Shown here: positions 6,266 to 36,051 of the stretch, one piece after another
Layout: every line of letters begins with the position of its first letter
Position numbering within the stretch: the first letter of the stretch is position 1
Assembly (NCBI GenBank): GCA_043827025.1
Contig: JBDRPL010000010.1
Span: 1 to 64,000, forward strand
Source of the DNA: Candidatus Micrarchaeota archaeon
Lineage (GTDB): Archaea > Micrarchaeota > Micrarchaeia > Anstonellales > Bilamarchaeaceae
Direction of reading: 5' to 3'
Length of the DNA: 64,000 nucleotides
The notes under the pieces: generated by a model
Databases searched by the model: none
Seen by the model: only the letters and a program-made list of their open reading frames with translations
What the model was told of the DNA's origin: nothing
Translations under genes and position numbers: made by a program

Positions 6266-6280
6266 TGAAGAGGTTTTACT

Positions 6281-6781
6281 ATGAAGAAAATACTGACTTT
6301 GTTGGTCATTTTCCTTTTGTTGGGTTGTGTCCAGCAACAGCAGAATATTGGGAAGAATGAAACTACAAGTTTAGAAAATCAATCAAACATCACCAATTCT
6401 AGTGTAACCAATATAGATATCTCAAAATTTAATGGAAGCATAACTTTTGAAATTGAAGAACTTAATAATAGTTATGGCAATATTAGTCCATTCTTGCACG
6501 TGCAAACAAATGAAACGTATCCTTGTTCCAATAATTATTTTAGTCATCGTATTGAAACAAATGGTTCTACGATTCATGTAGTTTTACTTGACGTGATGCT
6601 GGAGAAAGTGTGTATTGAAATAATTACAAACTCGTCTTTCTTTGAACAAATATCTTTAAAAGATGGAAACTATACACTCGAATTCGTTTCAGCAAAAGGA
6701 ACTGATAGTTATCAATTGATTGTCGATGCAAATAAAGTAAGTGTTTTACCCATAAAATCCACGTTTTCAAAATTCGAGTGA
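6281..6781 (+). CDS. Putative lipoprotein
   Basis: MKK + hydrophobic stretch + LLGC lipobox; many N-x-S/T sequons. Confidence 0.75.
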   Translation: MKKILTLLVIFLLLGCVQQQQNIGKNETTSLENQSNITNSSVTNIDISKFNGSITFEIEELNNSYGNISPFLHVQTNETYPCSNNYFSHRIETNGSTIHVVLLDVMLEKVCIEIITNSSFFEQISLKDGNYTLEFVSAKGTDSYQLIVDANKVSVLPIKSTFSKFE

Positions 6782-6901
6782 TACTACAACCTTCGAAAAT
6801 GGATTAACCTTGCAACGCGCTCGCGTTCAGCCGCTCGAGTGTCTTTTTAAGCTTTTCTTGCGAATAGTGACTAGGTTTGTTATTTATATCTGGTGACTCT
6901 A

Positions 6902-8563: not shown

Positions 8564-10188
8564 GTATTATGGATTTTGAATCAGCATCGGCATATGCCAG
8601 GAAAATAGAAAAAAGCGCTTTACCGTCAGTGCAGTATGAAGGTGAAGTTGAGTTTTCCCTGACAGTCGACCTATCTCCAAAGGAAATAGAGGATTTTGTA
8701 TATCAAGATTTGTTGAATCTTTATCAGAAATTGGGCAAGATAAATAAGACTTCAAAACTTTTCAGTGGACAGGTCTCAGTTGCCAAGTCCTCGGCAAGAT
8801 CAGCAGAAGTCGAATCCAAAATGAAATCCATAACAGAAAATGCCCTCAAGAATGTAGATGCATTGAGGAATGTCAAGGCTCCTGAAGAGGTTCCGGTGGA
8901 AGTGAAGAAAGGGCCTGAGGACTTTACTATTGATTTCGAGAAATTCGAACATCCCTCTGAAAAGGCGCCTAAGGAAACTAAGTTCGAATCCGAGTTTGAT
9001 TTTGAAATAGCACCTAGAGAAAAGGAAGTAGGTGTCAGGCCAATCCGGGGCCAAGAGACTCCTGAAGAAAAAGAGGGTTTTGAAATTGAGCCTGATGAAA
9101 AGGAGAAAAAAGAAGAAGTTGATATCGTTGACCTAGAGCCTGAGAAAATAGAGGAAAAATTAGAGGAACAGGTTGGAAAGGCTGAGCGAAAAGAGGTGCA
9201 GAAGAGGCAGATTCCTTCGATACTGAGGTCTGCTGATGAAGCAGCTACAAAGAAATATGATGAGATGCAGGAGCAGCTCCACACCCAGATGGATTCAGGG
9301 ATGAGTGTCACTGATATCCAGAAGAAGATGCTTGATCTCACAAAGGAACTTTTCAAGGAAAAAAACACTTCGAAAAGGGAGAAGATAAAGTTGCAGATTA
9401 CTGTTCTGAAGAATATGCTTAGCGGAACTGCTGGCGAGGCAGGAGTCACTGGTGCAGGCAGGAAGGCCGCGGCAAAAACTCCGTCCGTAGATTATTCAGC
9501 TAAGATGTATGATGCCCTTATTTCAACTCAGAATGCAGAACTTTCGAATGCCAAGGACTCGCTTGTAACTCAATATTCTAACAAACTGAATTCATTGAAA
9601 ACAGAATTTTATAATGCCGTTTCAAGCGTTGATTATTCCGATGTGCCTACAAGGAAGAAGGCATATGGCCATTTGCTGGACTTTTTTACCTCGCTTGTGA
9701 AATCGCTTCCATCTGAGATTTCCAAGAGGAAGGATTTCCTTGTGACTAAGCACAAGAACGAATGGGACAGGCTTGCCAGCTCTCCGGAATTGAAAAAGAA
9801 GAAGGCAGTCGGCTCGAAAATAGATGATGTGTCGTCTTCTCTAAATACTCGATATTCAAAGGAATTCAATTCAGCGAAAGAGATTGTTGTCAGGCAGGTG
9901 GAGGTCGCCATAGAATCGGCTTCCCGTGAAGTTTCTAAAGAAGTGGCTTCGGTTTCAGCGTCCAAGAAGCCTGATCCGACCCAAGTCATCTTTGATATAA
10001 ACAATACTGATGAAGGAACGTTGCTTTATCACCTTCATTCAAATGAGCCTGAATATTATAAGAAATACGAGCGCAATCATGTTTCAAAGTATGAGGCATT
10101 GGCCTATGCCAAAAGCCTCATTGCCAAGGAAAAAGGTTTAAGCAAAGACATTATCAATAAATATTTTGGAAAATCGGGTGAAAAATGA
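8551..10188 (+). CDS. Hypothetical soluble protein (acidic linker, helical/coiled-coil) inside the pilus operon
   Basis: 545-aa ORF overlapping both neighbours; no recognisable motif. Confidence 0.8.
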   Translation: MEFLSIMDFESASAYARKIEKSALPSVQYEGEVEFSLTVDLSPKEIEDFVYQDLLNLYQKLGKINKTSKLFSGQVSVAKSSARSAEVESKMKSITENALKNVDALRNVKAPEEVPVEVKKGPEDFTIDFEKFEHPSEKAPKETKFESEFDFEIAPREKEVGVRPIRGQETPEEKEGFEIEPDEKEKKEEVDIVDLEPEKIEEKLEEQVGKAERKEVQKRQIPSILRSADEAATKKYDEMQEQLHTQMDSGMSVTDIQKKMLDLTKELFKEKNTSKREKIKLQITVLKNMLSGTAGEAGVTGAGRKAAAKTPSVDYSAKMYDALISTQNAELSNAKDSLVTQYSNKLNSLKTEFYNAVSSVDYSDVPTRKKAYGHLLDFFTSLVKSLPSEISKRKDFLVTKHKNEWDRLASSPELKKKKAVGSKIDDVSSSLNTRYSKEFNSAKEIVVRQVEVAIESASREVSKEVASVSASKKPDPTQVIFDINNTDEGTLLYHLHSNEPEYYKKYERNHVSKYEALAYAKSLIAKEKGLSKDIINKYFGKSGEK

Positions 10189-11060
10189 TGACAAAGAAAG
10201 AAAGCGCATCAAATACTTTTGGCGACAAGATATTAAAGTATTTTCCTGAAATGAAGGAAAAACTCATGCTTGCAGATATGAAGGTGGCTCCTGAGCAGTT
10301 TTTGAGTAAGGCAGCCAACTCGGCGCTTATGTTTTCCCTTACTCTTTTAGTACTCAGTGCTTTCCTGCTTGTTCAGATAGGTGTAATTCAGCTTGACAAC
10401 TTTGATCTCCTTTTCACCTTTGTGGTGCTGTCTTTCCTCTTCCTAATCTATCTGTTTTTCTTCTTCTTTTACTTCAAAATGTATCCTGAGGCAAAGCTTG
10501 CAAGAAGGAGAAGGCAGCTTGACTATGAGATTGTCTTTGGTGGAAGGCATCTTGTCATTGCGCTGAAGTCTGGCATGCCTCTTTTCGATGCAATGGTTGG
10601 AGTTTCACAGGGCTATGGGGCTGCTAGCGAGGAATTCTCCAAAATAGTGCAGAAGATTTCAGCTGGCACTCCTATGACCCAGGCAATCCGCGAGGTTGCC
10701 CAAATAAATCCTTCAAATTATTGTGTCAGGGTTTTCATGCAGATTTCCAATTCGCTTTCGTCAGGTGCTGATTTAGGCAATTCGCTTGATTCTGTGCTTG
10801 ACCAGATATCCAAAGAGCAGCTCATACAGCTCAGGGAATACGGCCAGAAGCTTACGCCGATGGTCATGTTCTTCATGGTTTTCGGAATAATCCTTCCGTC
10901 CATCGGAGTTGTGCTTGCGACTGTATTGTTTTCTGTAATAAGCGGAGGAAACATAGGTCTTCCTTCGAGTATATTGCTTTACATATTTGCATTCATTGCA
11001 GTGGTTCAGTTCCTGTTCCTCGGAGTCATCGAGAGTTCAAGGCCAAAATATCTTTTGTAG
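10185..11060 (+). CDS. Type II secretion system F / TadB-PilC-like platform protein
   Basis: LKSGMPLFDAM...YGAASEEF...GTPM...SGADL pattern with N- and C-terminal TM segments. Confidence 0.9.
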   Translation: MMTKKESASNTFGDKILKYFPEMKEKLMLADMKVAPEQFLSKAANSALMFSLTLLVLSAFLLVQIGVIQLDNFDLLFTFVVLSFLFLIYLFFFFFYFKMYPEAKLARRRRQLDYEIVFGGRHLVIALKSGMPLFDAMVGVSQGYGAASEEFSKIVQKISAGTPMTQAIREVAQINPSNYCVRVFMQISNSLSSGADLGNSLDSVLDQISKEQLIQLREYGQKLTPMVMFFMVFGIILPSIGVVLATVLFSVISGGNIGLPSSILLYIFAFIAVVQFLFLGVIESSRPKYLL

Positions 11061-11069
11061 GTGAAATTG

Positions 11070-12134
11070 ATGGCAACAAAACAAAGTTTTTTTGATATGA
11101 TTGGTCGGTTGTTCTTCAGCAGGAATCAGATCAAGTCATTTACGGAGAAAGTGTCCTGTGCAGGAGTTAATATGGAAGCTGAGTCGTTTATTGGCTATCT
11201 TGTATTGCTGATTGTATTGACATCATTCATAGTTGCTGCATTGATAGTAAATGATTCGTTTATCTACAGTTCGATAGTTTCCATATTGAATTCGTTTTTT
11301 ATCATGCCGGAAATCCTGGTATGGATAGTCATCTACATAATTTCGCTTATTGTGAGCTATGGCGTCATTTTCCTTCTTGTCTATTCGCTTCTTTCGCTCA
11401 AGGCTGAAGACCGAAGAAACAAGGTGGAACAGGCTCTTCCTGATTTCCTTTTGATGGTTTCTGCAAATATGAAGGCAGGCATGACTCTTGATAGGGCAAT
11501 GTGGTATGCTGCAAAGCCAGAATTTGGAACATTGTCCAATGAAGTCAAAACTATAATTAAAGGCTCTTTCAGCGGTATGTCTCTTGAGCAGTCTCTTGAC
11601 ACACTGTCAACGCGTTTTGATTCAAGCACCTTCTCAAGGACAGTTTCTCTTATAAAACAAGCATCTTCTTCAGGAGGTGAGATTTCTGAAGTGCTTGAAC
11701 GCACGGCGGGCAATGTCAGGGATACGATGATAATGAAGAAAGAAGTGTCAGCATCCCTTGTGATGTATCAGATCTTCCTATTCTTTTCTGCCATTGTTGG
11801 AGCGCCTTTCCTTTTTGCAGTTGGCAATAAGCTTGTGCAGATATTCGAGAAGCAGTTTGCCATGAGTATGGCTGTTCCGACTTCATCTATATCTACAGGT
11901 TTCACGACGTTGCCTTCTTTTTCAAAATTGCTTATAACTTCAACCGAGTTCTTCTATTTTACCATTGCCACAATATTCGTGACAGTGCTGTTCTCGGCTT
12001 TGATTGTTGGGGTGATAAAGACAGGTTCAAGATCCCAGGGCATAAAATACGTGCCTTTCATGCTTATTGGAGCATATTTAATATATTGGCTTGTTGATAT
12101 GGTGCTGACAACAATATTCATGTCGATAGGATGA
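11070..12134 (+). CDS. Type II secretion system F / TadC-PilC-like platform protein
   Basis: EQALPDFL...AGMTLDRA...EFGTLSNE...SGGEISEVL; multiple TMs. Confidence 0.9.
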   Translation: MATKQSFFDMIGRLFFSRNQIKSFTEKVSCAGVNMEAESFIGYLVLLIVLTSFIVAALIVNDSFIYSSIVSILNSFFIMPEILVWIVIYIISLIVSYGVIFLLVYSLLSLKAEDRRNKVEQALPDFLLMVSANMKAGMTLDRAMWYAAKPEFGTLSNEVKTIIKGSFSGMSLEQSLDTLSTRFDSSTFSRTVSLIKQASSSGGEISEVLERTAGNVRDTMIMKKEVSASLVMYQIFLFFSAIVGAPFLFAVGNKLVQIFEKQFAMSMAVPTSSISTGFTTLPSFSKLLITSTEFFYFTIATIFVTVLFSALIVGVIKTGSRSQGIKYVPFMLIGAYLIYWLVDMVLTTIFMSIG

Positions 12135-21395: not shown

Positions 21396-24152
21396 CTATT
21401 CAACATCCAACTTAATCGCTGGTTTCCCCGGGAGTGCGTTCTTCGCTTTTGGCTCTGCACCAGCTTTGTCCTCAAGCATTACCCTGACCTCACAGGAATA
21501 TTCCTTCTCAAAGAATTCCTTTGCATCCTTAAGCGCATCCATCTCGCTTTCTTCTGTTGGAGGCACAGGAAGTGCATAAACATTTTTTATGGTCTGCTTC
21601 ACAATGCGCTGGACTTCTCCCATGTTCATCTTTTTCGCAGATGCAATCTTCATTATCTTGTCCAAAGCCTTTTCTTCACGCATTATTACCTGAAGATCTC
21701 GTTTCCATTGGGATGCGACATATATTTCGATTGATTTTATTTTCTGTGTCGAATCCTTGATCACGAATCCTTTTATCCTGTCAATATCCTCTTTCATCTG
21801 TTTTACTGCGTTCTCAGCATCCTCTATTTCTTTGCTAATCTCCCTATCATCACATTCTGGGAACTTCTGTTCGCAACAGAATCCCTTGCCACCAAGCATG
21901 CTCCAGAATTCTTCGGCATGGAATGGCATGAATGGGGAAATCAATAGAGTCCATTTTTTGAAGAATGATTCGAGCCTCGGCTCCTTTGCCCTTTTCAGGT
22001 ACCAGGAAAGGTCAGCATGTATGTCATAGAATATCTCAAGTGCTAGTTCCCTAAGCGCAAGGTTTGGATAAAGCTCATTCGCCTTTCTTATCTTTCGATT
22101 AAGTCGAGACATTAACCATTTGTCGATTTGTCCAGGTTTGGCCTTGCCCTTTTCTTTTGAAGCTAATTCCATCAATCGTGAAAAGAATTCCAATCTTGTT
22201 TTCGTTCCTTCAGCAACGCTCTTGTTGAAATCCGTGTCCTGAGTAAGGTCTGCTCCGCTTACTGTTGAGAATCGAACCACATCTGCTCCGAATTCCTTTA
22301 TTGCCTTTCTTAGTGGAAGGATGTTACCCATGCTCTTGCTCATCTTCTTTCCATCCATCAAAACAAATCCGTTCGTAACAATCTGTTTAGGCCAGTTTTT
22401 CTTTTCAAATATGGCAACATGGTTGAATATGTAGAATGGAAGGTGGTTCCTCACAAGGTCAGCACCGCTGTGCCTTGAATCGCATGGATACCAATACGAA
22501 AAACTCTGGCGGAGTTTTTCGAGTTTTGGGTTCCAGGTCTTGTGTTTTGTTTCCTCTCCTAGGAACACGTAATCAAAGAATTCATCGCCCATCTCGCTTT
22601 CATCGACTTCTCCAAGAAGGTGGGAAATCGTATAGAATGCCATGTAAATTGTGCTGTCAGACAATGCCTCTATGACCAGTTTCTCGTCAAAGGGGAATTT
22701 GGTCCCAAGCCCTCTGCTGCGGGCGCAAGGCTTTTGCTTGAACCAGTTGATCGCATATTCATATTCGCTTCTTGTTTTTTCAGGGATTATGGTCATTTTC
22801 CCAAGGCATTCTTCCGCCTTCTTCTTCCATTCCACAATTCCATAGTCAATGAACCATTGGTCGATTATATTGACAATTACCTCGGCTCCGCATCTGCACC
22901 GCACCGGCTTGTTGCTTATTTCCCATAATATGACAGCCTGCTTCTTTGCAAACATCTCATTCTTTGTTTTTTCAATTGCAACAGAAACCTTTTCACCAGA
23001 ATGCGGTCCTGCGACCATAATTCCCGTCAGTATCTCTTTCTTGTAGACCTCCTTTACTATATCCTCTATTTTAGGATCATGTTGGTCCTTCACGCCCATC
23101 TTTTCAAGGAGTTCAAGAGCCATGAATTTGTAGCCTTCAACTTTTATAATCGGGGTATAATCCAATTTTATTCCAAGATCAACAAGTCCCATGTGGTCAT
23201 AAGGCGCATGGGAAGGCACGCTCATCACGATTCCTGTGCCGACATCATCCTTCACATATTCTGCCTTGTAGATTGGGACCTCCTCCCCAGTCACGATATT
23301 TTTCGCTTTTCTGCCAACCATTTCTTTTCCATAGAACTCTTTAATCACCTGAAGCTCGAATCCTTGCGAATTCATCTTGTCGCATGTCTTTTTTGAAATA
23401 TAGTATATGTCGCCGGTTTTCTTGCTCATTGCCTTTACATGCTCTGTAGATGGATTGACCCAGATATTGGTGACGCCATATATTGTTTCAGGCCTAAGCG
23501 TTGCTGTGAGTATGAAACCATCTTCATATCCGAATTTAATTGCTGTAAATTCCTTTAGTTCTGGATCAACATCTCCCTTAGTGTCATGGCCACCAACTGC
23601 CTGGTTATCTACAGGGCACCATGCAATAGGGTATTTGCCCTGCACTATGTAGCCTAGTTTCTTCAATCTTCTGAACTGCCATTGGATGAACCTGTTGAAT
23701 TTTTTGTCAGAACTGTAGAATTTCCTTCTCCAATCTATGCTATAGCCCATCTCATGCATTCCTACTTCTATCTCCTTTGAGAAGTACATCACCAAGTCTT
23801 CAGGCTTTGTAAGCTTTGCAGCTGTTTTTCGATCGATGCCATAGATGTTTTCAAACACCGAAAGCACTTCTTCATCTTTGTCTGCTATTCTTTTGGCCAT
23901 GGCGATTATAGGGGTTCCAGTGACATGAAAGCCCATTGGAAACAGTGTGCAATATCCTTTCATTCTTAGAAAACGGGCATAGATGTCTGCAGTCGTATAT
24001 GTCCTTCCATGGCCTATGTGCTGGGGTGAATTGGGATATGGAAATGCAGCAGTTATCATCTTCTTTTCTTTTTTGGAGGGTTCTGGGTTGTAAACATTTT
24101 CAGCATTCCATTTCTTGGCCCATTTTTCTTCTATTTTAGTATGCATAAACAT
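21396..24152 (-). CDS. leuS: Leucine--tRNA ligase (archaeal/eukaryal type)
   Basis: FPYPN..HIGH, GFHVTGTP, TLRPET, GTGIVMSVPSHAP, KMSKS, A.PGKPAI C-terminus. Confidence 0.97.
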   Translation of the reverse strand: MFMHTKIEEKWAKKWNAENVYNPEPSKKEKKMITAAFPYPNSPQHIGHGRTYTTADIYARFLRMKGYCTLFPMGFHVTGTPIIAMAKRIADKDEEVLSVFENIYGIDRKTAAKLTKPEDLVMYFSKEIEVGMHEMGYSIDWRRKFYSSDKKFNRFIQWQFRRLKKLGYIVQGKYPIAWCPVDNQAVGGHDTKGDVDPELKEFTAIKFGYEDGFILTATLRPETIYGVTNIWVNPSTEHVKAMSKKTGDIYYISKKTCDKMNSQGFELQVIKEFYGKEMVGRKAKNIVTGEEVPIYKAEYVKDDVGTGIVMSVPSHAPYDHMGLVDLGIKLDYTPIIKVEGYKFMALELLEKMGVKDQHDPKIEDIVKEVYKKEILTGIMVAGPHSGEKVSVAIEKTKNEMFAKKQAVILWEISNKPVRCRCGAEVIVNIIDQWFIDYGIVEWKKKAEECLGKMTIIPEKTRSEYEYAINWFKQKPCARSRGLGTKFPFDEKLVIEALSDSTIYMAFYTISHLLGEVDESEMGDEFFDYVFLGEETKHKTWNPKLEKLRQSFSYWYPCDSRHSGADLVRNHLPFYIFNHVAIFEKKNWPKQIVTNGFVLMDGKKMSKSMGNILPLRKAIKEFGADVVRFSTVSGADLTQDTDFNKSVAEGTKTRLEFFSRLMELASKEKGKAKPGQIDKWLMSRLNRKIRKANELYPNLALRELALEIFYDIHADLSWYLKRAKEPRLESFFKKWTLLISPFMPFHAEEFWSMLGGKGFCCEQKFPECDDREISKEIEDAENAVKQMKEDIDRIKGFVIKDSTQKIKSIEIYVASQWKRDLQVIMREEKALDKIMKIASAKKMNMGEVQRIVKQTIKNVYALPVPPTEESEMDALKDAKEFFEKEYSCEVRVMLEDKAGAEPKAKNALPGKPAIKLDVE

Positions 24153-24188: not shown

Positions 24189-24381
24189 ATGGGGACTTAG
24201 CTTTTTATAGCTAACCCATACCCCGTGTTTTCCTTAAAAAATAGTTGGGGGTGGTCAGAAGGCCCGATTGACTAAACGTCAATGGGCACAGTGAACGAAG
24301 TTCACTTGTGGTGCGTGGAAATGGGAGGGGGAACGGCCCCCTCGCGTTTTCGCATGGGGACTTAGCTTTTTATAGTTAACC
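24189..24381. repeat. 28-bp direct repeat (1 mismatch) flanking a 137-bp GC-rich hairpin cassette
   Basis: ATGGGGACTTAGCTTTTTATAG(C/T)TAACC at 24189-24216 and 24354-24381; the repeat contains a TATA-like TTTTTATA. Confidence 0.85.
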
Positions 24382-24397
24382 TGATTAGATATTATGC

Positions 24398-25657
24398 ATG
24401 TTATTCCCAGTGGCACAGCTAGTTATAAGTGGTCCCGTGTGGGGCAACATACTAGTTGCACTGATGTTTGGGGTAATTTTAACTTCGTTGACTTATTTTG
24501 TAGGTGCTATAACCCAAAGCCCTAAGATTAATGCGGCTGCAAAAGAAGAGCTTATTGCCCTTGTTTTCAGTATGGTAATAATAGGTTCATTTGCATTTGT
24601 GCTTGCAACCCTGAGCCAGGTAACTGCAGCCATATTTGCGGATGCAACTCATGATGCAGGCTTTGATCCTGCCCATGTTGCCAGTGGCGGGATGATAAAT
24701 TCTCATTTTGACCTTGCAAGTTCTGCCCTGGACATTTTGTTTGTGAAACTCAAGAGCATATACGCAAGCCTTTATCTTTATGATGTCCTCATAGGTTTCC
24801 TTTCAACAATGTCATTTCCTCTTGGAAATCCTATGCCATTTCTTGCGCTCATTACATTTTCATTCATGCCTTTTGATGGATTGGTGCTTCTTGTTAATGC
24901 CCATACTATAGTTGTGGAAGCAGTTGGCTACCTTATAACTGTGGTAATGGCAAAGCAGTCATTACTGATTTTTTCGCGGGATGTTGTCATAGCACTATTG
25001 CTTCCCCTTGGGCTTGTGATGCGCGCATTCCCCTGGCTGAGGATGACTGGTTCGAGCCTCATAGCGTTTTCTGTAACTCTTTATTTTATTTATCCGCTTA
25101 CATTACTGCTTTCCAATTACATGATATTTGATGTCTACAAACCAGTTGACTTTGTCTATTCACCAAACCAGAAAATGCTTTCATTTTTCGGTTCTGATAG
25201 TGACAGTAAAATTCCCGATGACACTATAACAGAACTTGAAAAGCTTACCGAACGCTCTGGAGAGGTTATGCATACCATGGCTGTTGAACCCGAGCATGAT
25301 TGCTCGGGGTCTACCTTCGCATTTCTCTGCAACCTTAAATATTATGCTTCGATGGTTTGGAGTGGTGTCACAGGATTTGCCGGGACTGTGTGGAATGTCT
25401 CGAAATTCATGTGGGGTTTTGGAGGGGATTATTTGGGCTATTTCTTTGGGAGCAAGGGAGGCCCGGCTTCTTTTGGTTCCACTGTTTCAGGGCTTTATAA
25501 ATTCGTTATTGAGGAAGTTGTGACTGTATCGCAGTTTATAGTGCTTATAACAATAACTTCGGTGATAGAGATAATAATCACTGTTACTATGTACAGGAAC
25601 ATAGCATTGCTGATCGGAGGAGAGGTTGAAATTGCAGGCCTTACGAAACTGGTGTAA
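24398..25657 (+). CDS. Polytopic membrane protein, VirB6/TrbL/CedA-like paralog 1
   Basis: Shared motifs AKEEL, GLVMRAFPWLRMTG..LIA....YP, C-terminal GGEVEIAGLTKLV. Confidence 0.7.
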   Translation: MLFPVAQLVISGPVWGNILVALMFGVILTSLTYFVGAITQSPKINAAAKEELIALVFSMVIIGSFAFVLATLSQVTAAIFADATHDAGFDPAHVASGGMINSHFDLASSALDILFVKLKSIYASLYLYDVLIGFLSTMSFPLGNPMPFLALITFSFMPFDGLVLLVNAHTIVVEAVGYLITVVMAKQSLLIFSRDVVIALLLPLGLVMRAFPWLRMTGSSLIAFSVTLYFIYPLTLLLSNYMIFDVYKPVDFVYSPNQKMLSFFGSDSDSKIPDDTITELEKLTERSGEVMHTMAVEPEHDCSGSTFAFLCNLKYYASMVWSGVTGFAGTVWNVSKFMWGFGGDYLGYFFGSKGGPASFGSTVSGLYKFVIEEVVTVSQFIVLITITSVIEIIITVTMYRNIALLIGGEVEIAGLTKLV

Positions 25658-25659
25658 TC

Positions 25660-26946
25660 ATGAAAAAACTCTCCATAATATTTATCTTGTTGTTGTTCGC
25701 AGGCTTGCTTTTTGCAGCAGTTGATTTCAACCAGAGTCTCACAGATGTGCGTGATCTTATTGAGGGAATGGTAACGCAGCTCCTTCCTATTTTGGCCTTG
25801 ACAATGGTTGTTTTCGCAGCTTTTGTATACCTCGCGGGCAGTATAGGTGATTCGTCAACTAGAGCAAGGGCAAGTGTTTGGGCAAACGCATTCTTGGTCT
25901 CGGCAGTCGTCTCAATACTGCTTTATATGGTATTGATAGCTTTCTTTGAGCAGGTGTTTAAGGACCTACCGCCTGAGATACAATTATATCAAAACATTTT
26001 TCTTGCAGTAGTCACCGTCCTGACAGGAATAATTGTAATCGCATATGGGATCTCTAGTGTCCTTAACAATTCTGAGTGGAAGGCCTATTGGGGCCATGAG
26101 ATTTCGCAACTCGTTGCATCAGTACTCATACTTTTTTTTGCATTGGCATTCTTCGTCACAGTGAATGCATTCTCTTCAAGCATGACTACATCTATAACTG
26201 GAATCAATGAGGCTACTGCGCCTCTTGCTGCAAATGCCTTTCTTGAGAGGATACTTCTTAAGAACATAGCTCCTGCAATCGACGATCTTTTCAAGCTTCA
26301 GCTCTGTCTTTCGCACCTAAGCACATTCCAGAGAAGAATTGGCGAGTATGTGCTTACGATGACTTACAAATTGTTTCCTGCAGTAGATTCCCTTCTTCAG
26401 GTAGTGAATGTGATTTTTTTTGGGTTCGTTGCAGTTCTGGGAAGCGTTTCGACCCAGATGCTGATCCTTAATATTGTGGATTCCGTAATGATCTATGTGT
26501 TGACTGCAGGAGTGATACTTAGGTTCATACCCCCTACGCGAGAGGCTGGCGTTTTTCTTATAGCTCTTGCAATAGGTTTTCAGGCAATATTTCCGCTCAC
26601 CTATATACTTAATATACATGCACTCAGTATTGTTGGTTTTGCTGATTACACACCACCAATCCAGATAATGACTCTTTGCGGTGCCAAATACATTGCATTT
26701 GGGGTCGGAACTGAATTAATCAGTTCAGCTCTTTCAGGAGTTCCTATCCTTGGTACTGCATGGGCTGCAATTTCGGGTTTGGTTACTGAGCTTCCGATAA
26801 ACCTTTTGAGCCCCTTGGAATTCACAGTATTCCTGGAGAATGTTGCATATCTGTCGCTCATAGCGCTTTTCATGCCCGCATTCTCAACGACGATTACGTT
26901 TGCATTTATAAATGCGTTCACCAAATTTGTTAATATGAAAATGTAG
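25660..26946 (+). CDS. VirB6/CedA-like paralog 2 with N-terminal VirB2/TrbC pilin-like module
   Basis: Signal peptide, TM-(STRARASVWA)-TM hairpin, then GVILRFIPPTREAG..LIA....FP. Confidence 0.65.
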   Translation: MKKLSIIFILLLFAGLLFAAVDFNQSLTDVRDLIEGMVTQLLPILALTMVVFAAFVYLAGSIGDSSTRARASVWANAFLVSAVVSILLYMVLIAFFEQVFKDLPPEIQLYQNIFLAVVTVLTGIIVIAYGISSVLNNSEWKAYWGHEISQLVASVLILFFALAFFVTVNAFSSSMTTSITGINEATAPLAANAFLERILLKNIAPAIDDLFKLQLCLSHLSTFQRRIGEYVLTMTYKLFPAVDSLLQVVNVIFFGFVAVLGSVSTQMLILNIVDSVMIYVLTAGVILRFIPPTREAGVFLIALAIGFQAIFPLTYILNIHALSIVGFADYTPPIQIMTLCGAKYIAFGVGTELISSALSGVPILGTAWAAISGLVTELPINLLSPLEFTVFLENVAYLSLIALFMPAFSTTITFAFINAFTKFVNMKM

Positions 26947-26975
26947 AAAATATGTAGAAATAAAGATGTGGAAAA

Positions 26976-28400
26976 ATGGCTTTGCTATGTCAGGGAAATG
27001 TTCCGTATGATTCTGCTGTCCAAGGTGCAGCCCATGCAATATCCACGTCTACATTGTGGTCTTCAGCCATTCCAATAGCAGCGCTTCTCATGATAATCGG
27101 CGTCATCCTTGTAGCCCTGGTTTACATGCTGAGCGGCATATTTCAGGATGACAAGATGAAGGTCTGGGCAAGGATGGAACTTTTTGAGATCATCTATTCT
27201 GCAATAATACTTTGTATGGCTGTTTTTGCAGTAGGGCTTGCGGATGAGGTCGCACGTTGTGTTTCGCTTGACCCTAATCTATCGCCCACATCCAGGGCAC
27301 TTTGCGACAATCCAGACGACCCCTTTGGCACTTCTACAACTTCTGTTTATAATGGTATCCCATACTGCCACATGAGGATGGCGATTTCATATACGGATAC
27401 TATATTTGCAGAAACCAATAAATTCGCCCTTTTGCTTTACGGCAGTTATATCTACACGTCCACATTTGCAGATATGGCTATAAATGTGGAGTTTGTTTTC
27501 GAGAAAGCAGGTTTCATGACTTTTAATCCGTTGAGAGGATTATTTACCATAGGAAATGACATGCGTTCCTTTCTTTTTGATACCCTCATCAAACTAATGC
27601 TCGTCACGAAATTCCAGGAAATTCTGCTTGTGTTTACTGCAAAGGTGCTTTTCCCATTGCTGTTCATAATCGGTGCAGTGCTGAGGACATTTGCATTTAC
27701 CAGACGGCTTGGAGGATTGCTAATGGCACTTGCCCTTGCATTATTCTTCATTTACCCCATGTTCTATGTGTTCGGAATGTTCATCCTAGATTCCCTGAAA
27801 ACACAGGCAGTGGGATACTGTGTCCATTCTGGCCAGGGTACATTGGACGAATGCCAAGATTCTGTTTCAGTATTCTCAAATTTCTATAGTGGCGGCAGCG
27901 TTCCGCTTATAGGCTCTTTTAATCCTGGGGAACTTGAAGGTTCAACAAAAGGCAAGAGATCTACTGAGGTATTTGACCCATTTGTCAATGGTATCAATGG
28001 AGAAAGTGGATTGCCTAAATTCTATACGCCGCCTCATTCCTGCACTGTACCTGTTGATTGCATAGGCGATCCAAAATGTATGGTCGATGAGGGCAATGGA
28101 AAGGTCAATTATTGCGAATGCAAGGACTCTGAATGTAAGCTAAATGATGCAGCAAATGAGAAAATCCAGGGATTCGGAAGCAGTCTACTGCAGGGCTTGA
28201 CAGAAAGGTCATGGAGCGATTCGCTTTTCATAACTGATTTTTCGAAAGATGGGGGATATGTGGACATAACTGCCAGAATTGCGTTCTTTTCAGTTTTCTT
28301 TTCATTATTTGGATTGCTTGCAACTATTGCTGGAATCAGGAGCATTTCGATGTTCCTTGGTGGGGATCTTGAGATCGCGGGTTTGACGCACCTTATCTGA
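26976..28400 (+). CDS. VirB6/CedA-like paralog 3 with Cys-rich loops
   Basis: WARMEL, GAVLRTFAFTRRLGG.LMA....YP, GGDLEIAGLTHLI. Confidence 0.7.
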   Translation: MALLCQGNVPYDSAVQGAAHAISTSTLWSSAIPIAALLMIIGVILVALVYMLSGIFQDDKMKVWARMELFEIIYSAIILCMAVFAVGLADEVARCVSLDPNLSPTSRALCDNPDDPFGTSTTSVYNGIPYCHMRMAISYTDTIFAETNKFALLLYGSYIYTSTFADMAINVEFVFEKAGFMTFNPLRGLFTIGNDMRSFLFDTLIKLMLVTKFQEILLVFTAKVLFPLLFIIGAVLRTFAFTRRLGGLLMALALALFFIYPMFYVFGMFILDSLKTQAVGYCVHSGQGTLDECQDSVSVFSNFYSGGSVPLIGSFNPGELEGSTKGKRSTEVFDPFVNGINGESGLPKFYTPPHSCTVPVDCIGDPKCMVDEGNGKVNYCECKDSECKLNDAANEKIQGFGSSLLQGLTERSWSDSLFITDFSKDGGYVDITARIAFFSVFFSLFGLLATIAGIRSISMFLGGDLEIAGLTHLI

Positions 28401-28409
28401 TGTGATGCT

Positions 28410-29633
28410 ATGAGCATGTTGACTACTAAAAATTTATTTTTCTTCCTCATATTACTCACTTTGACTTATGCTTCGCTTAATAACCCTCAAGAGCAAGAGC
28501 AGGCTCAAGAAGGCCTGACCAAGCTATTCAGTGATATGGCGCAGGAAGCCAAAGGAGTTACAGGCGGAGTGGTCCATACTCTTTTCGGCGCCTTTCAACC
28601 AAGTTCCTGTGGTGCTGAGGATACATGGTTGAATTTCGGAACAATGAATTGGCTTATTCCATCTGTCTTTGTTGCGATGGTTGTCCTATTTGGAATCACA
28701 ATACTCTACATGATGGGCAATCTTTTCCAGCTACAGAACCTCATTTTGGTTGCTAAAGAAGAATATTTTAATTCATTCGCAACAGTTCTGCGTGTAATAC
28801 TGGTACTTGGCGCAGTTGCAACTGTTGATGCTGCCTGGTATGGTTTGCAGACTAATAATCTTGGCCCTGACCCTGATCCAGTATATAGTTCTTCGCCAGT
28901 CATGATTGATGCAGCTCTTGTCTTCAGCTACCAGACAATGACTGAGCTGAATTCTGTTTTCAGCAATTTGCTGATGTTCAACATGGTTGTCCATACCCTT
29001 TATACCTCTACGCTTTATTTTGGAGTGACATGGCGTGCAATGTACTCTTTCAACCTGGGTCCCGTACTTAAGCCAATAATTGATATTTTGGGAGTTTCAA
29101 TGAATATGCTTTCTGTAGCCATAGGCGAATGGGTCATTCATATGGCTACTCTTTGTATAATAAAGAAATGGGCCTTTACCTTATTCATCCCATTGGGCAT
29201 GCTTCTCAGAGCCATACCTCATACAAGGGCAGGAGGAGAAGCGCTTTTCGCGCTTGTATTTGCCTTTGCAGTTATCTATCCATTCATGTTCATAGTTGAT
29301 TATGAAGCGCATAAGATACTAAAATCTTCGATACTCGATCCAACTGAAAATACGCTTATGACTGATCTTATGGAAGGAACAGGGCTGTTCAAGGTTGCAA
29401 CTATGATGGTCGCATTCTTTTTCCTTAGCGGAGGTGTTTTTGTACCTGTGCTTGTAGAAGCAGGACTTTCAATTACCTTCGAGCTTGTCAATGCTGCTGT
29501 CTATTACATTGTAATTCTTGGGCTGTTATTGCCTTTTATAAATATTTTTATAACTCTTACTGCTGCCAAGGAATTTGCAAAAGGATGGGGAGGGGTTGAC
29601 ATAAATTACATGGCATTCGTGAGGCTGATCTGA
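28410..29633 (+). CDS. VirB6/CedA-like paralog 4
   Basis: AKEEY, GMLLRAIPHTRAGG.LFA....YP, GGVDINYMAFVRLI. Confidence 0.7.
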   Translation: MSMLTTKNLFFFLILLTLTYASLNNPQEQEQAQEGLTKLFSDMAQEAKGVTGGVVHTLFGAFQPSSCGAEDTWLNFGTMNWLIPSVFVAMVVLFGITILYMMGNLFQLQNLILVAKEEYFNSFATVLRVILVLGAVATVDAAWYGLQTNNLGPDPDPVYSSSPVMIDAALVFSYQTMTELNSVFSNLLMFNMVVHTLYTSTLYFGVTWRAMYSFNLGPVLKPIIDILGVSMNMLSVAIGEWVIHMATLCIIKKWAFTLFIPLGMLLRAIPHTRAGGEALFALVFAFAVIYPFMFIVDYEAHKILKSSILDPTENTLMTDLMEGTGLFKVATMMVAFFFLSGGVFVPVLVEAGLSITFELVNAAVYYIVILGLLLPFINIFITLTAAKEFAKGWGGVDINYMAFVRLI

Positions 29634-30778
29634 TGGGCATCATCTATGATAAAATCTGCGTGAACGGCGGTGCAGCCATAAGCGATGTAGTCACACAGTG
29701 GAGATTTGGGGATGTTGCCATAAATTGGATGCCTCTTGCAGCTGCAGCAATGCTTGCCTCTGTTGTAGTAATCGTATTGATCTACCTTTTTGGAGTTATA
29801 ACTCGGGACCCGAATGCAAATACATTTGCAAAAATAGAGTTATACGAAGTATTCATCTCCTTCATCATAGTTCTTTTCCTCATGGGAGTACTTGGTTCGC
29901 TTTGTTCTGTGAGCATAGGAAAACTTCTGGTAGTCAATCAACAAGCTCCCCTTCCGGCAGGAAATGATGATATTGATGAATTCCTTGACATGGATGTTTT
30001 TTCTGCAGGTGAGGACTATTTCGAAAAGGTTTCTGCTGACATGGAAGGCTGGATGGTTGTCAATTATTTCTTTGCCATCTGGCTTGATGAGGCCGCGACC
30101 ATAACTCCATATTCGAGGCCATTGGGTGTTGGTATGGTGGCAGCTCCTCTTGCAGGGCTTGCAGCACCCCTTAAGCAAGTAGTTTACAATGTGTATGTTG
30201 CTCTTTCCATCGCATACATAATCAACTATGCCCAGCTTTATGTCTTCCGTTTTTCAATAATCGCATTCATGTTCATTTATTTCCCAATAGGTATTTTCCT
30301 GCGTTGCTTCACGCCTACAAGAAGAATTGGCGGAACCCTGCTTGGAGTGGGCATTGGTTTCCTTGTAATTGTCCCTCTCCTGACTCTTGTTGCGCACGTG
30401 ATGTTCATGTCCTCATATGGAGTCATTACACTATTGAATGATAGCATTACCAACTATGTCGGCAGCTCTCTCTCTGTTACAGCAGGAGCCAAATCCATAT
30501 TGGCCAACCTCTTTGACATTAGCGTGCCTACCATAATAGGCAGTTTTGTTGCAGGGAAATTTGGAGCAATGCTTGGTTTCATAATAGGCGCAGGTGGAAT
30601 ACCCGGCTCATTGCTCACTGCAGCATTTATCATTCCAATATCAACAGTTGGCGCCGCGTTCCTTATAGGATTCCTTATTCCTGCATTTAACACTATCATT
30701 CTTGTATATTCTGTGAAATCCCTTTCCAGATCTCTTGGCGAGGAGATTGATGTCAGTTCTTTGACGAGGTTGATATGA
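29633..30778 (+). CDS. VirB6/CedA-like paralog 5
   Basis: AKIEL, GIFLRCFTPTRRIGG.LLG....VP, GEEIDVSSLTRLI. Confidence 0.7.
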   Translation: MGIIYDKICVNGGAAISDVVTQWRFGDVAINWMPLAAAAMLASVVVIVLIYLFGVITRDPNANTFAKIELYEVFISFIIVLFLMGVLGSLCSVSIGKLLVVNQQAPLPAGNDDIDEFLDMDVFSAGEDYFEKVSADMEGWMVVNYFFAIWLDEAATITPYSRPLGVGMVAAPLAGLAAPLKQVVYNVYVALSIAYIINYAQLYVFRFSIIAFMFIYFPIGIFLRCFTPTRRIGGTLLGVGIGFLVIVPLLTLVAHVMFMSSYGVITLLNDSITNYVGSSLSVTAGAKSILANLFDISVPTIIGSFVAGKFGAMLGFIIGAGGIPGSLLTAAFIIPISTVGAAFLIGFLIPAFNTIILVYSVKSLSRSLGEEIDVSSLTRLI

Positions 30779-31941
30779 TGAAAATGCGATTGCTGTTGCT
30801 TGTTTTTATTCTGTTCCTGAGTGTTCCGCTTCATTCAGATGATGCTTCAGTTGGCCGTGTCCTAATCGGCTGGGAGGCTCTTGCATACGGTGCAGCAATA
30901 GTCTCATTCGTTTTTGCTATTCTTGCATTGATGATTGGAAGGGCATTTGACCTGAGGAATATCACCCAGGCAGCCAAAACAGAGCTCATCTATATTTTTT
31001 CTACCATTTTACTCATAATGATGCTTGGCGTTTTCGTTACAACTGGGTCAGACCTGCTCTATGAACTTTCCACGCAATTGCTTTGCTCAAGTTATTCTAA
31101 TGTCCCGTCTTTCCAACAGGCTTTTCCGGATTGTGAACTATATGTGGCACCTCCGCCAGTCTATGATTATGATTCAAATGGGGGTAGGATTGAAGTAACT
31201 CTCAAACCCCATGTCATTGATGTTGCAAAGCTCTATCTTCAGCCAGTGGTGCTGGGAGCGCAGACTTCGCAAAAAATATTATATGGATTGAGCATACCTG
31301 TGGAAGCCATGGCTTCCATTTATGTCGAGATCTTCATGAGTGAGCATGCCTCAGGATTCGGATTCAAGCCATTTGCCGAGAGGATAAAGAATACCAACAT
31401 GGCAATCAGCTTCTATCTCTTTGCATATTATCTGATAATCCATATCCTGAATTTCATAAGAGCATATGGCCTGTTTTTCTTATCTATAGGGGTAATATTA
31501 AGGTGCTTCCCACCTACTCGCGGTGCTGGTGCATATGTCATTGCACTCACGCTAGGGCTTTATTTTGTCTTCCCGTTTTCATTTGTCATGGCTTCAGCAG
31601 TCAGTGCAGGTTATTCTTTCGAACAGAGTTTCCTTGGTTTCGGCGGAGGCAAAAATCTCATATTTGCCCTGCCTTTTGAGCTTCCGGAGAACTCAAAAAT
31701 ATGCAATGGCATGGATTCCAGCTCTGTTGTTGATGCCATTCAATATTTCAAGGCTAACAAGTCGGACATATTCAATATAATGGATGTCATCAGCCTTAAT
31801 GTGGTCAAAGCCATGACGCTTAGGATATGCCTGCTTCCGCTTGTTGCGCTTACAGTGACATTCACATTCATCCTTTCCACTACAAACCTTTTCGGAGGCA
31901 ATATTCCTGAAATAGGAAGAGGGCTGGTTAAGCTTATTTGA
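30775..31941 (+). CDS. VirB6/CedA-like paralog 6
   Basis: AKTEL, GVILRCFPPTRGAG..VIA....FP, GGNIPEIGRGLVKLI. Confidence 0.7.
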   Translation: MMKMRLLLLVFILFLSVPLHSDDASVGRVLIGWEALAYGAAIVSFVFAILALMIGRAFDLRNITQAAKTELIYIFSTILLIMMLGVFVTTGSDLLYELSTQLLCSSYSNVPSFQQAFPDCELYVAPPPVYDYDSNGGRIEVTLKPHVIDVAKLYLQPVVLGAQTSQKILYGLSIPVEAMASIYVEIFMSEHASGFGFKPFAERIKNTNMAISFYLFAYYLIIHILNFIRAYGLFFLSIGVILRCFPPTRGAGAYVIALTLGLYFVFPFSFVMASAVSAGYSFEQSFLGFGGGKNLIFALPFELPENSKICNGMDSSSVVDAIQYFKANKSDIFNIMDVISLNVVKAMTLRICLLPLVALTVTFTFILSTTNLFGGNIPEIGRGLVKLI

Positions 31942-33822: not shown

Positions 33823-34377
33823 ATGAGAAAATTCGTTATCGATACTTCGCTGTTCGTCAATCCGTATGCAAGAGGGGCTTTTGGCAAAGACCCAAGGGCT
33901 GCGCTCAAGGCATTTGTCAAAATAATAAAGAAAAAGAAGATCGAGTTCTTCATGCCCCCGTCCATCTTCCGCGAATTGACTAACTTTGTCGGAGATGATA
34001 TTGAGCATCTAGAGATGGTCGTAAAGCGTAAGTCGCCAAACCTGTATTCCATGTACCTTCCGGCAGCAGTTTTCTATGATTTCATAGAAGATGTGCGTGC
34101 AAGAATAAACAAGGGTTTGAGGCTTGCGGAAGAGGCTGCAAAGGACAATACTCCTGATAATGATCCGAAGCTCAATAAACTAAGGCAGAAATACAGGGAA
34201 TTCATGCGCACTGGTCTGTTGGACAGCAGTGAAGATCTTGAGCTTGTTCTTTTGGCAAAGGAAATTGAAGCTACTTTAGTTAGTTGCGATGAAGGCGTAA
34301 TTCATTTCGCAAGCAAGATTGGCTGTGAAGTATTGAATGCGACTAAGTTCGCGAAGCTGCTGAAGACGCTGAAGTAA
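33823..34377 (+). CDS. RNA-free RNase P (HARP) / RNA ligase partner, PIN-domain protein
   Basis: FVIDTS, RARINKGLRLAE, LRQKYRE..RTG.LDS.ED...LLA.E, D.G. Confidence 0.92.
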   Translation: MRKFVIDTSLFVNPYARGAFGKDPRAALKAFVKIIKKKKIEFFMPPSIFRELTNFVGDDIEHLEMVVKRKSPNLYSMYLPAAVFYDFIEDVRARINKGLRLAEEAAKDNTPDNDPKLNKLRQKYREFMRTGLLDSSEDLELVLLAKEIEATLVSCDEGVIHFASKIGCEVLNATKFAKLLKTLK

Positions 34378-34384
34378 TTCTTAG

Positions 34385-35446
34385 TTAATCTATCTGCCCC
34401 CTTCCTCTTAGGGCCCCATTTATCTTTTCTGATGTCTTTCTGTATATTTTCCTGAACCTTATCCTTTTCCTGTTGCCTTCTTTCTTTTCAAAAACAGTTT
34501 CTACCCTTATCTCCTTGCTCATGTGCTTCTTTATGTTTTCGTAGATTCTTGGATCTTTCACTAGTATTTCATATTCCTCGTGACTATGGCCTTCTTTTTC
34601 TGATTGTTTTATGGAATCAATTAAATTGAAGAATGCCTTCCCCATCCGTTTCTCATATTCGTCTCTCTTGAGCCCGAAGTCATTTAGGAACATTGAAGCT
34701 CTAAAGATGCGCTGCATGAAGAATCCTGGCGGCATATCAAAAAAGCTTTTCACTGCTTCTTCCACGTCGGCAATGTCTGAATTCGCCACTACATATTTCA
34801 CGGTTTCCTTTCTGCTCGCTGTTTTTATTACTATTCCTTCCCTGTTGGAATTGTTTATATCAAGTGCGATTTTCTTTATCTTGTCAATATCTTTTGTGCT
34901 GAATTTGCCAAGCCTGGGCACGCTTTCGATATCGTATTTGTCCAGCAACTTATACTTTTCTGCAATAGGCAGATAGGTTTCGTTTTCCAATCCTATGTCA
35001 AAAACAAGGAATTTCACATCAAACTTTTTTGTTGGCAGGGTATATGGCGTATTGCCGACCATCTCTCCGCACAATACATATTTCGGATGATCTTTGAAGA
35101 ACTTCTCAAGTTTCATTTCCCTTGCCTTTTCAGTTGAGAACAAATCAATGAAACCGCCTCTTGAAAAGGCAAATACCTTGCCTTCAACAATTGCCACCCT
35201 GACATTGAAGCCATCTATCTTCTCTTCTATGTAAATCTCTTTTTCAGTTATGTTCTTCTCAATGCCTTTGTCCAAGGTAAAGATTCGTTTTATGTGAGGG
35301 TAGCCAGGAACGACTCGTTCTCTTGTTATTACTCGCCCTCGGTTTATTTCTCTAAAGCCTTCGCGGAATCTATAATATTCAATATCTTCTTTGTGGTGTA
35401 TAATCTTCCCGCGCTTGATTGCCTCGTCCAGCTCCTTCTTTTCCAT
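34385..35446 (-). CDS. ATP-dependent RNA ligase, archaeal Rnl3 (Pab1020) family
   Basis: GYPHIKR, EEKIDGFNVR (motif I), SRGG, LCGEMVG, FDI, REGIVIK, VKYV. Confidence 0.93.
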   Translation of the reverse strand: MEKKELDEAIKRGKIIHHKEDIEYYRFREGFREINRGRVITRERVVPGYPHIKRIFTLDKGIEKNITEKEIYIEEKIDGFNVRVAIVEGKVFAFSRGGFIDLFSTEKAREMKLEKFFKDHPKYVLCGEMVGNTPYTLPTKKFDVKFLVFDIGLENETYLPIAEKYKLLDKYDIESVPRLGKFSTKDIDKIKKIALDINNSNREGIVIKTASRKETVKYVVANSDIADVEEAVKSFFDMPPGFFMQRIFRASMFLNDFGLKRDEYEKRMGKAFFNLIDSIKQSEKEGHSHEEYEILVKDPRIYENIKKHMSKEIRVETVFEKKEGNRKRIRFRKIYRKTSEKINGALRGRGQID

Positions 35447-35541
35447 GATTAGAGTTTTTGTTCAAAGTTTTTATATTTGCTGTTTTGCATAAGGGGGTAA
35501 GATACTAGGGGGAATTCGAGTTTGACAAGTGTCCCCCTGTA

Positions 35542-36051
35542 TTACCAAGGAACTTTCTTGACTCCAATCCTGTTCGCAATGAAATTAGTCAGTGGATGAA
35601 GAATAAGTGTAATGGCCAATATCAAAACTATTCCGTCAGGCTGGTAATATATCTTTGGGCTTGAGGAGTATGCAAAAGCCAATGCTATCACAAGGAAAAA
35701 GAATGTGTCAAGCACGAATGGTTTTCCAGAATCGATGTTCAGCCTTCTTTTTATGAAACTTCCAAGCGAATCTCCGACCATGGTTCCAAGAGATAGAAGG
35801 AATGCGACAAACACCATCTGGTCTGCTGTGAATTCAGGAAGAAGATATAGCCTGCTCAAAACGAATCCGAACAAAGTTCCTACAAATACTCCTCCGATGA
35901 AGCCCCTTATTGTTTTTCCATCCCCCAATATCCTTTTGCCATCAATGGATTTTCCAAGGTCAATCGGAGTTCCACCTCCTAAAATCACAGGGGAAGAATT
36001 AGCGATGTATGCAGGAAGAATGAACAGCACCAGATAAATAAGTTCGATCAT
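35542..36051 (-). CDS. carS: CDP-archaeol synthase
   Basis: PAYIANSSPV, PIDLG, RILGDGKTIRG, GD.LGSFIKRR, LH...N, K.VPW. Confidence 0.93.
   Translation of the reverse strand: MIELIYLVLFILPAYIANSSPVILGGGTPIDLGKSIDGKRILGDGKTIRGFIGGVFVGTLFGFVLSRLYLLPEFTADQMVFVAFLLSLGTMVGDSLGSFIKRRLNIDSGKPFVLDTFFFLVIALAFAYSSSPKIYYQPDGIVLILAITLILHPLTNFIANRIGVKKVPW

Follow-up and report, generated by a model that had tools for sequence, protein, structure and literature searches.

Six CedA-like membrane protein paralogs encoded in tandem in Micrarchaeota: candidate core of a domesticated Ced-type machine

The 64,000-nucleotide (nt) stretch of Micrarchaeota DNA analyzed here (contig JBDRPL010000010.1; hereinafter, the window) contains an array of six consecutive, co-oriented genes that encode paralogous membrane proteins of 381-474 amino acids (aa) (Table 1). 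The genes are separated, in order, by 2, 29, 9, -1 and -4 nt. In the alignment, genes 2-6 are 19-26% identical to gene 1, and pairwise BLASTP comparisons among the six proteins yield E-values of 0.002 or lower for 13 of the 15 pairs (0.02 and 1.5 for the remaining two). The alignment also shows an invariant glutamate in the N-terminal hairpin (AKEEL, WGHEI, ARMEL, AKEEY, AKIEL, AKTEL) and an invariant central motif, G-x3-R-x5-R-x2-G-x14-P; a C-terminal GG/GE...L tail is present in all proteins except that of gene 2. In these respects, the first-pass annotation of the window, which described six tightly spaced genes with shared hairpin and central motifs and a G(G/E) tail in five of them, was accurate. 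The same annotation regarded cysteine (Cys) as common in the outer loops, which is true of gene 3 alone (each of the other five proteins contains 2-5 Cys), and, while correct on paralogy, it overlooked the additional N-terminal pilin-like module of gene 2.

Table 1. Coordinates of the array, its neighboring features and the second array of the same genome
Feature	Coordinates	Strand	Basis
Array position 1, CedA-like membrane protein, 419 aa	24398..25657	+	Open reading frame (ORF), paralog alignment
Array position 2, CedA-like with fused N-terminal pilin-like module, without C-terminal tail, 428 aa	25660..26946	+	ORF, alignment
Pilin-like module (signal-like helix and two-helix hairpin) fused to position 2	25660..25962	+	Likeness to free small proteins
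Array position 3, CedA-like, Cys-rich outer loop (13 Cys), 474 aa	26976..28400	+	ORF, alignment
Array position 4, CedA-like protein, 407 aa	28410..29633	+	ORF, paralog alignment, tree
Array position 5, CedA-like protein, 381 aa	29633..30778	+	ORF, alignment, model
Array position 6, CedA-like protein, 388 aa	30775..31941	+	ORF, alignment, position profile
TATA-like box, 23 nt upstream of the first start codon	24367..24374	+	Sequence
leuS, divergent neighbor (context, not a machine part)	21396..24152	-	Pfam tRNA-synt_1 and LeuRS editing domain
Second six-gene array and start of the next frame	G000:C11:60441-68600 (L001:11841-20000)		Paralogs

Pfam, NCBIfam and PDB sequence searches name no family for the six proteins, and for this reason crenarchaeal CedA proteins were collected for direct comparison. 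The Ced system consists of CedA, CedE, CedA1, CedA2, CedB and CedD (Sulfolobales/Desulfurococcales), and the Ted system is its counterpart in Thermoproteales; according to Beltran et al. (PMC9905601), CedA and TedA are distant homologs of VirB6, and the N-terminus of CedA is homologous to the CedA1 pilin. The CedA equivalog profile (NF041796) matched 105 of the 121 genomes in the order of an Acidianus record, and 30 of the 31 loci gave full proteins. An HHalign comparison of a 94-sequence alignment of the Micrarchaeota family with these 30 CedA sequences identifies similarity with the probability of 90.6% (E = 1.3e-6) over 179 colinear columns that run from the N-terminal hairpin through the central motif and include both motifs. 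Among the controls, reversed alignments give 0.1-0.2%, and 20 block shuffles reach at most 60%, over 38 columns. The profile of the single-copy clade matches CedA with the probability of 92.6%, and position-1 orthologs alone with 4-11%. These results support, at the profile level, the identification of the paralogs as CedA-homologous polytopic channel proteins, a likeness that the first-pass annotation had noticed.

Structural models were obtained for position 1 (predicted local distance difference test, pLDDT, 80.0, from 105 near full-length orthologs) and position 5 (pLDDT 81.6). An exhaustive structural search places TrwI/VirB6 at rank 6 for position 1 (Z 6.8, root mean square deviation, rmsd, 6.8, 212 aligned) and at rank 4 for position 5 (Z 9.0, rmsd 6.4, 238 of 261 aligned), and DotA, presumably the counterpart of VirB6, at rank 1 (Z 8.6, 279 aligned) and rank 7 (Z 8.8, 300 aligned), respectively. 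Both are channel proteins of type IV secretion systems (T4SS) and the only near whole-chain matches of both models; their alignments are the longest in the position-5 list and among the longest for position 1. Among the structure-atlas neighbors are a cluster in which 23% of the members have CedA1 domains, and TrbL-family models at TM 0.40-0.47. A comparison of the family with one Enterococcus VirB6/TrbL sequence gives 1.2%, a test that CedA fails as well, and a complex prediction for positions 1 and 2 gives a score of 0.05 (mark 0.32), which speaks neither for nor against their association.

The source genome (G000; 1.33 Mb, 91.6% complete) encodes seven further paralogs, for a total of 13: six of them form a second array (C11:60441-67723), and one is a single copy (C2:15395-16366). 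Position 3 of the second array has an outer domain with 28 Cys, and behind this array begins a long open frame that runs off the contig and that C16:2323-4977 appears to continue. Downstream of the single copy lie a gene for a 258-aa protein with two membrane helices (hereinafter, the anchor), a 496-aa ATPase gene and a coiled-coil/winged-helix gene. A paralogous anchor-ATPase module (C9:58832-62618; 34% identical to the C2 pair for the anchor and 45% for the ATPase) opens a run (G000:C9:58832-65189) that includes, in addition, a 109-aa protein resembling the ATPase C-terminus, a 129-aa membrane protein, a coiled-coil/winged-helix protein and an 851-aa membrane protein; the first five genes of this run are conserved behind the array in the relative G103. 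The first-pass annotation missed the second array and the coexisting minimal Ced-like module. The genome was searched for two conjugation families alone, relaxase PF03432 and coupling protein PF02534, the pair expected of a conjugative element, and neither was found in this 91.6% complete assembly.

The best NCBIfam match of the C2 ATPase is CedB (NF041017, E = 4e-30), ahead of VirB4-like, CedD and HerA families, all these matches being far below the cut-offs (700 bits for CedB). The C9 ATPase matches CedB with E = 3e-19, and CedB, CedD and two VirB4 families score about equally. An alignment of anchor proteins is similar to the N-terminal halves of four CedB-clade proteins with the probability of 96.6% (E = 5.8e-10, 173 columns), compared with 0.3% for three CedD-clade proteins, 0.16% for reversed alignments and at most 42% for shuffles; the values are 11% for a pooled set of nine CedB/CedD sequences and 0.2% for 19 other crenarchaeal anchored ATPases. 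The anchor has no match in Pfam, NCBIfam or PDB or to the N-terminal half of Enterococcus VirB4, and a search for a longer fused protein, a weak test, gave none. In the ATPase tree, five Micrarchaeota motors group together (support 1.0), with no resolved sister group. The simplest reading is that the anchor and the ATPase represent CedB split into two genes, that is, a two-gene homolog of the CedB-type membrane-anchored VirB4/HerA ATPase. The first-pass annotation reported no HerA/CedB-type ATPase in the window, and indeed no HerA/DUF87 ATPase is found in these 64 kb; the CedB/VirB4-type ATPases are encoded elsewhere in the genome. Many Desulfurococcales-type genomes (L192, L222-L234, L240) encode, a few kb or less from cedA, an extra anchored ATPase with multiple helices; by NCBIfam, this protein is neither CedB nor CedD, and it is the top crenarchaeal match of the Micrarchaeota motor.

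The N-terminal module of window gene 2 is resembled by three small two-helix proteins of the source genome, two encoded on C32 and one on C21; it is 35% identical to the free protein C32:88192-88602 (profile match, E = 2e-10). Position-2 orthologs contain 0, 1 or 2 copies of this module, and in some lineages it is fused to position 1 or 2. Pilin-like genes are present in 39 of 41 genomes, both exceptions being genomes that lack the array family, and are multiplied to up to 8 matches per genome. The small proteins match the family's own N-terminal hairpin with the probability of 51%, compared with 92% for CedA1 against CedA, suggesting that the relation between the pilin and the channel N-terminus seen in Ced might recur here, more weakly. 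The array-type pilin-like proteins (G000:C32:87636-88602; L179, L181-L183) mostly contain one Cys near the mature start and one near the C-terminus, possibly a closing disulfide; those of the single-module type mostly have no Cys and often no leader.

Array architecture was compared in 12 hand-chosen, well-assembled relatives, seven with two arrays and five with one. All 21 arrays, 19 in the relatives and both in G000, consist of six genes whose order is fixed and whose stop and start codons overlap. In G062, position 4 of the second array (L172:10534-11570) is divided between two ORFs of 289 and 76 aa, reflecting a frameshift or a sequencing error. The window's order is represented by seven genomes with two arrays, and across these, 487 of the 504 best hits retain both the array and the position. 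The second-array proteins best match the same position of the first array in 33 of 42 cases (31 of 35 when position 4 is set aside, 2 of 7 at position 4), and in the tree, the two arrays pair up at positions 1, 2, 3 and 5 with support of 0.998, 0.991, 0.79-0.87 and 0.89, respectively, which indicates that the array was duplicated as a whole. Orthology across orders is shown for position 5 alone because, in the four most distant genomes, the proteins of positions 1-4 and 6 group separately from those of the window's order. In four of the five one-array genomes, two anchor genes directly follow the array (an ATPase comes next in three of the five), and in four of the five, pilin-like genes precede it; the complete locus of G103 reads two pilins, six paralogs, two anchors, ATPase and three small genes. 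The ATPase and pilin-like genes that the first-pass proposal called for are therefore not only present but, in relatives, part of one locus with the array. The second array is followed by an 1100-1650-aa protein in 6/6 same-order relatives, and its position 3 contains 20-106 Cys in 7/7 genomes. A separate minimal module (pilin, one paralog, anchor and ATPase), which mirrors cedA1-cedA-cedB, is complete in nine of the 12 regions fetched.

The family is represented in 135 of 151 Micrarchaeota genomes, mostly by 6-13 matches each (the upper counts are lower bounds), and comprises 3237 clusters at 50% identity; named homologs are mostly labeled Candidatus Micrarchaeota. The sampling of DPANN archaea covered Micrarchaeota and the phylum of an Iainarchaeum-labeled record, where 0/61 genomes drawn match in a search that included no positive control. 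The 16 family-negative genomes remain negative with a deeper profile, and the anchor gene is found in none of them; two further genomes carry the minimal module alone, without the array. In a tree of eRF1 from 31 genomes, the 16 negative and the two single-copy genomes group as a single clade, with support of 0.82. The pssA gene is present in 18/18 genomes of this loss clade and in 0/24 multi-copy genomes, and an ADP-dependent kinase in 17/18 and 6/24, respectively. Both are traits of Norongarragalinales, an order proposed to be possibly host-independent by Rao et al. (PMC12892359), whose paper contains no passage on secretion, VirB or Ced. The eRF1 genes of G103, G146 and G137 (L284, L285 and L286) contain long in-frame inserts, probably inteins.

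On balance, the evidence tilts modestly toward a domesticated Ced-type machine, encoded in the chromosome and acting at host contact, with the array as its hetero-oligomeric core. Each paralog would be a CedA/VirB6-like subunit in one of six fixed, non-interchangeable positions, and one copy of each most likely assembles into a hetero-oligomeric channel or pilus base; the fixed number and order, the overlapping frames and the duplication of the array as a whole argue for one complex with one copy per subunit. The CedB-like ATPase, split into a gene for the two-helix membrane anchor with the N-domain and a gene for the ATPase, would power the channel from the cytoplasm, and the two-helix pilin-like proteins, whether separate or joined to position 1 or 2, would form an extracellular conduit or plug; linkage and co-loss tie the array to both. 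Specificity could come from the position-specific outer loops and the giant surface protein. Homology points to a translocation or pilus-assembly machine, and the most likely activity is drawing in macromolecules at host contact; by analogy with Ced, these would be nucleic acid. Three observations favor a role at the host interface: the coexistence of a plain Ced-like module with the array, the elaboration of outer loops and giant proteins, and the loss of the array where host dependence seems to have been lost. A hetero-oligomeric translocation pore in a DPANN symbiont had been proposed in the first-pass annotation, and CedA homology, the ATPase, the pilin-like genes and their linkage agree with it; the linkage to leuS that was part of that proposal is only partly conserved.

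Several observations weigh against this reading. The CedA equivalog NF041796 (cut-off 330 bits) matches 0/18 family members and none of the 13 paralogs of the genome; against 94 family members it yields one match (E = 0.0098). Position profiles built from seven sequences match CedA with probabilities spread over 30-83% (77.7% for position 1, 46% for position 2 and 83% for position 6), and the anchor matches two bona fide CedB alone with 61%. Foldseek finds no match at E <= 0.001 for either model, and the Z-scores of TrwI and DotA, 6.8-9.0, are within the range of unrelated helical bundles. For the small proteins, which the first-pass annotation anticipated as VirB2-like pilins, pilin-like genes exist but three alignments against CedA1 give 0.2-1.3%, and a weak match to TrbC (E = 0.0019) is absent from a second search. 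Six subunits are without precedent, given that Ced/Ted pili are not six-fold and that TrwI is a pentamer. The solved pili of these systems are 1-start with 5-start protofilaments (PMC9905601), which is why an explanation of the subunit number by a six-fold pilus was rejected. The loss amounts to a single event, read from the tree of one gene (support 0.82), and the assignment of the loss clade to Norongarragalinales is inferred from two marker genes. Simple nucleotide scavenging is disfavored as a role because the genome, by its sequence, has genes for purine and pyrimidine synthesis yet carries two arrays. Finally, in the one imaged Micrarchaeota pair, the connecting tubes are host-made (10.1101/2024.05.20.594898).

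The same machine could instead serve Ced-like DNA exchange within a species, for repair or recombination, without any role toward the host, which we consider unlikely. The closest tested relatives, CedA and CedB, import DNA for repair (PMC9905601), CedA and CedE have been proposed to form a hetero-oligomer (10.1101/2024.09.27.615246), and a HerA-clade ATPase is present. However, the separate minimal module is a better candidate for that job, the six-fold expansion, the large variable outer loops and the giant surface proteins downstream are left unexplained, the loss follows a putatively host-independent clade, and DprA was not found in the source genome. It is more doubtful still that the array is a cargo-free platform for pilus assembly or adhesion, or that its genes encode alternative homo-oligomeric channels rather than one hetero-oligomer. 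The fusions of pilin modules to positions 1 or 2, the multiplied pilin genes and the lack of coupling-protein and relaxase family matches (PF02534, PF03432) would fit, and the stoichiometry of the tandem VirB6 paralogs of Rickettsia, too, is not settled (PMC2653234); however, a repertoire should vary in number, and exactly six genes in fixed order with overlapping codons in every array, duplicated as a whole, fit a fixed stoichiometry better.

That the array encodes a lineage-specific membrane complex unrelated to T4SS, with the CedA likeness due to convergence of hydrophobic helices, appears very improbable. The empty Pfam, NCBIfam and PDB sequence searches, the negative Foldseek result and the one block-shuffled control that reached 60% are compatible with convergence, which would, however, have to account for the colinear 179-column match with both motifs, for the independent CedB match of the linked anchor gene and for the Ced-like gene order of the minimal module.

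The preferred host-contact machine shares with Ced the layout of the channel protein (an N-terminal hairpin resembling a pilin, then a G..L...F R.G hairpin in the center, an outer domain that varies and a final helix) and the type of ATPase, CedB-like and membrane-anchored; it is likewise chromosomal and lacks a relaxase family match. Unlike Ced, with its one or two channel genes, it has six fixed paralogs per array, and two arrays and a single copy here (13 genes); the ATPase is split into anchor and motor genes, giant surface proteins are encoded downstream, and the pilin-like proteins, sometimes fused to channel subunits, do not match CedA1. The array may thus work like a Ced/T4SS core, judging from its sequences, but falls outside the CedA equivalog. 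TrwI of plasmid R388 (7o3v) and DotA (9ngy) share the whole-chain helical arrangement at Z 6.8-9.0, but with scores not above helical noise, 9-10% identity and no coupling-protein family match on the Micrarchaeota side. The rvh T4SS of Rickettsiales (PMC2653234) has tandem, anciently diverged (about 80%) VirB6-type paralogs (virB6a-e) beside a VirB4-type ATPase in a reduced, host-associated genome; with five copies and a full VirB set in a diderm bacterium, as opposed to six in an archaeon of the Ced branch, it provides an analogy rather than an ortholog. In Patescibacteria, the relaxase-less T4SS (PMC12102498) is domesticated, has a separate gene for the VirB4 N-part (TrsD) and pilin arrays and is essential for epibiotic growth, but it is related to monoderm MPF-FATA, and its arrays consist of pilins, not VirB6. 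VirB4-like ATPases with giant proteins are also described for Nanohaloarchaea (PMC10266531), whereas PMC11420986 yielded no related material. No description of the present system was found in the open literature, the search having covered neither subscription journals nor supplements.

A bolder version of this reading, which is possible but doubtful, holds that six CedA-type subunits, one each, would sit on a hexameric split CedB motor as a host-feeding or docking organ, that the window's order would run two such channels with different outer loops (for two hosts or cargoes) beside a plain Ced-like DNA-exchange module, and that a lineage regaining independence would have discarded the six-subunit machine. 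The host-made tubes dock on an unnamed 21-nm barrel in the Micrarchaeota envelope seen by cryo-electron tomography (cryo-ET; 10.1101/2024.05.20.594898), and the six-subunit channel could be this barrel-like docking platform. The attachment and feeding of DPANN archaea on hosts have almost no named molecular parts, and the array offers a candidate, present almost throughout the phylum, whose subunits are defined; it also carries the domestication of conjugation machines beyond Crenarchaeota. If the reading is true, this would be an unusual VirB6-type core made of six different subunits, and the loss in a putatively host-independent clade makes the array a possible genomic marker of host dependence. 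The six subunits are concrete targets for proteomics and cryo-ET in existing Micrarchaeota co-cultures.

As to the genomic setting, the first-pass annotation described the array as chromosomally fixed next to leuS. The two are adjacent in the window, but "fixed" is too strong, and such linkage was rejected, because leuS adjoins the array in three of the six same-order relatives. With a GC content of 0.42-0.43 (0.38-0.46 across the window), housekeeping genes on both sides and the presence of the family in most Micrarchaeota, the array does not look like a mobile, patchy or compositionally foreign locus. The TATA-like box is the probable promoter of a leaderless operon transcript; two RNA runs gave no coverage of the array, which says nothing for or against its expression. 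It is contained in a 28-nt direct repeat that flanks 137 nt of strongly folding sequence (window 24189-24381; z -4.65, 0/200 shuffles). Rfam and ARAGORN searches upstream of the array gave nothing convincing; the repeat element has no Rfam match, and five relatives lack it ahead of the array. Its hairpin core is present about 10 more times in the genome, mostly between genes, in versions whose stems have changed yet still pair, and the element is probably a small dispersed repeat or miniature element.

Elsewhere in the window, a type IV pilus-like locus (5741-12134) includes a T2SSE ATPase (6893-8563, one of four in the source genome), two T2SSF genes and an unassigned 545-aa gene. Downstream of the array (33823-36051) are genes for a PINc protein, which we take to be of the RNA-free RNase P type, an RNA ligase and a CDP-archaeol synthase. 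Outside the window, a 242-aa membrane protein (G000:C11:37400-38128) has orthologs that immediately precede the array in G016, G038 and G103 and is a possible further machine component. Two surface-type proteins of 1720 and 984 aa are encoded at G000:C32:20137-28366, and a relative of the larger one follows the array in G031. At G000:C7:8572-12474, four tandem paralogs of an uncharacterized Cys/aromatic-rich repeat protein adjoin a HerA-like ATPase.

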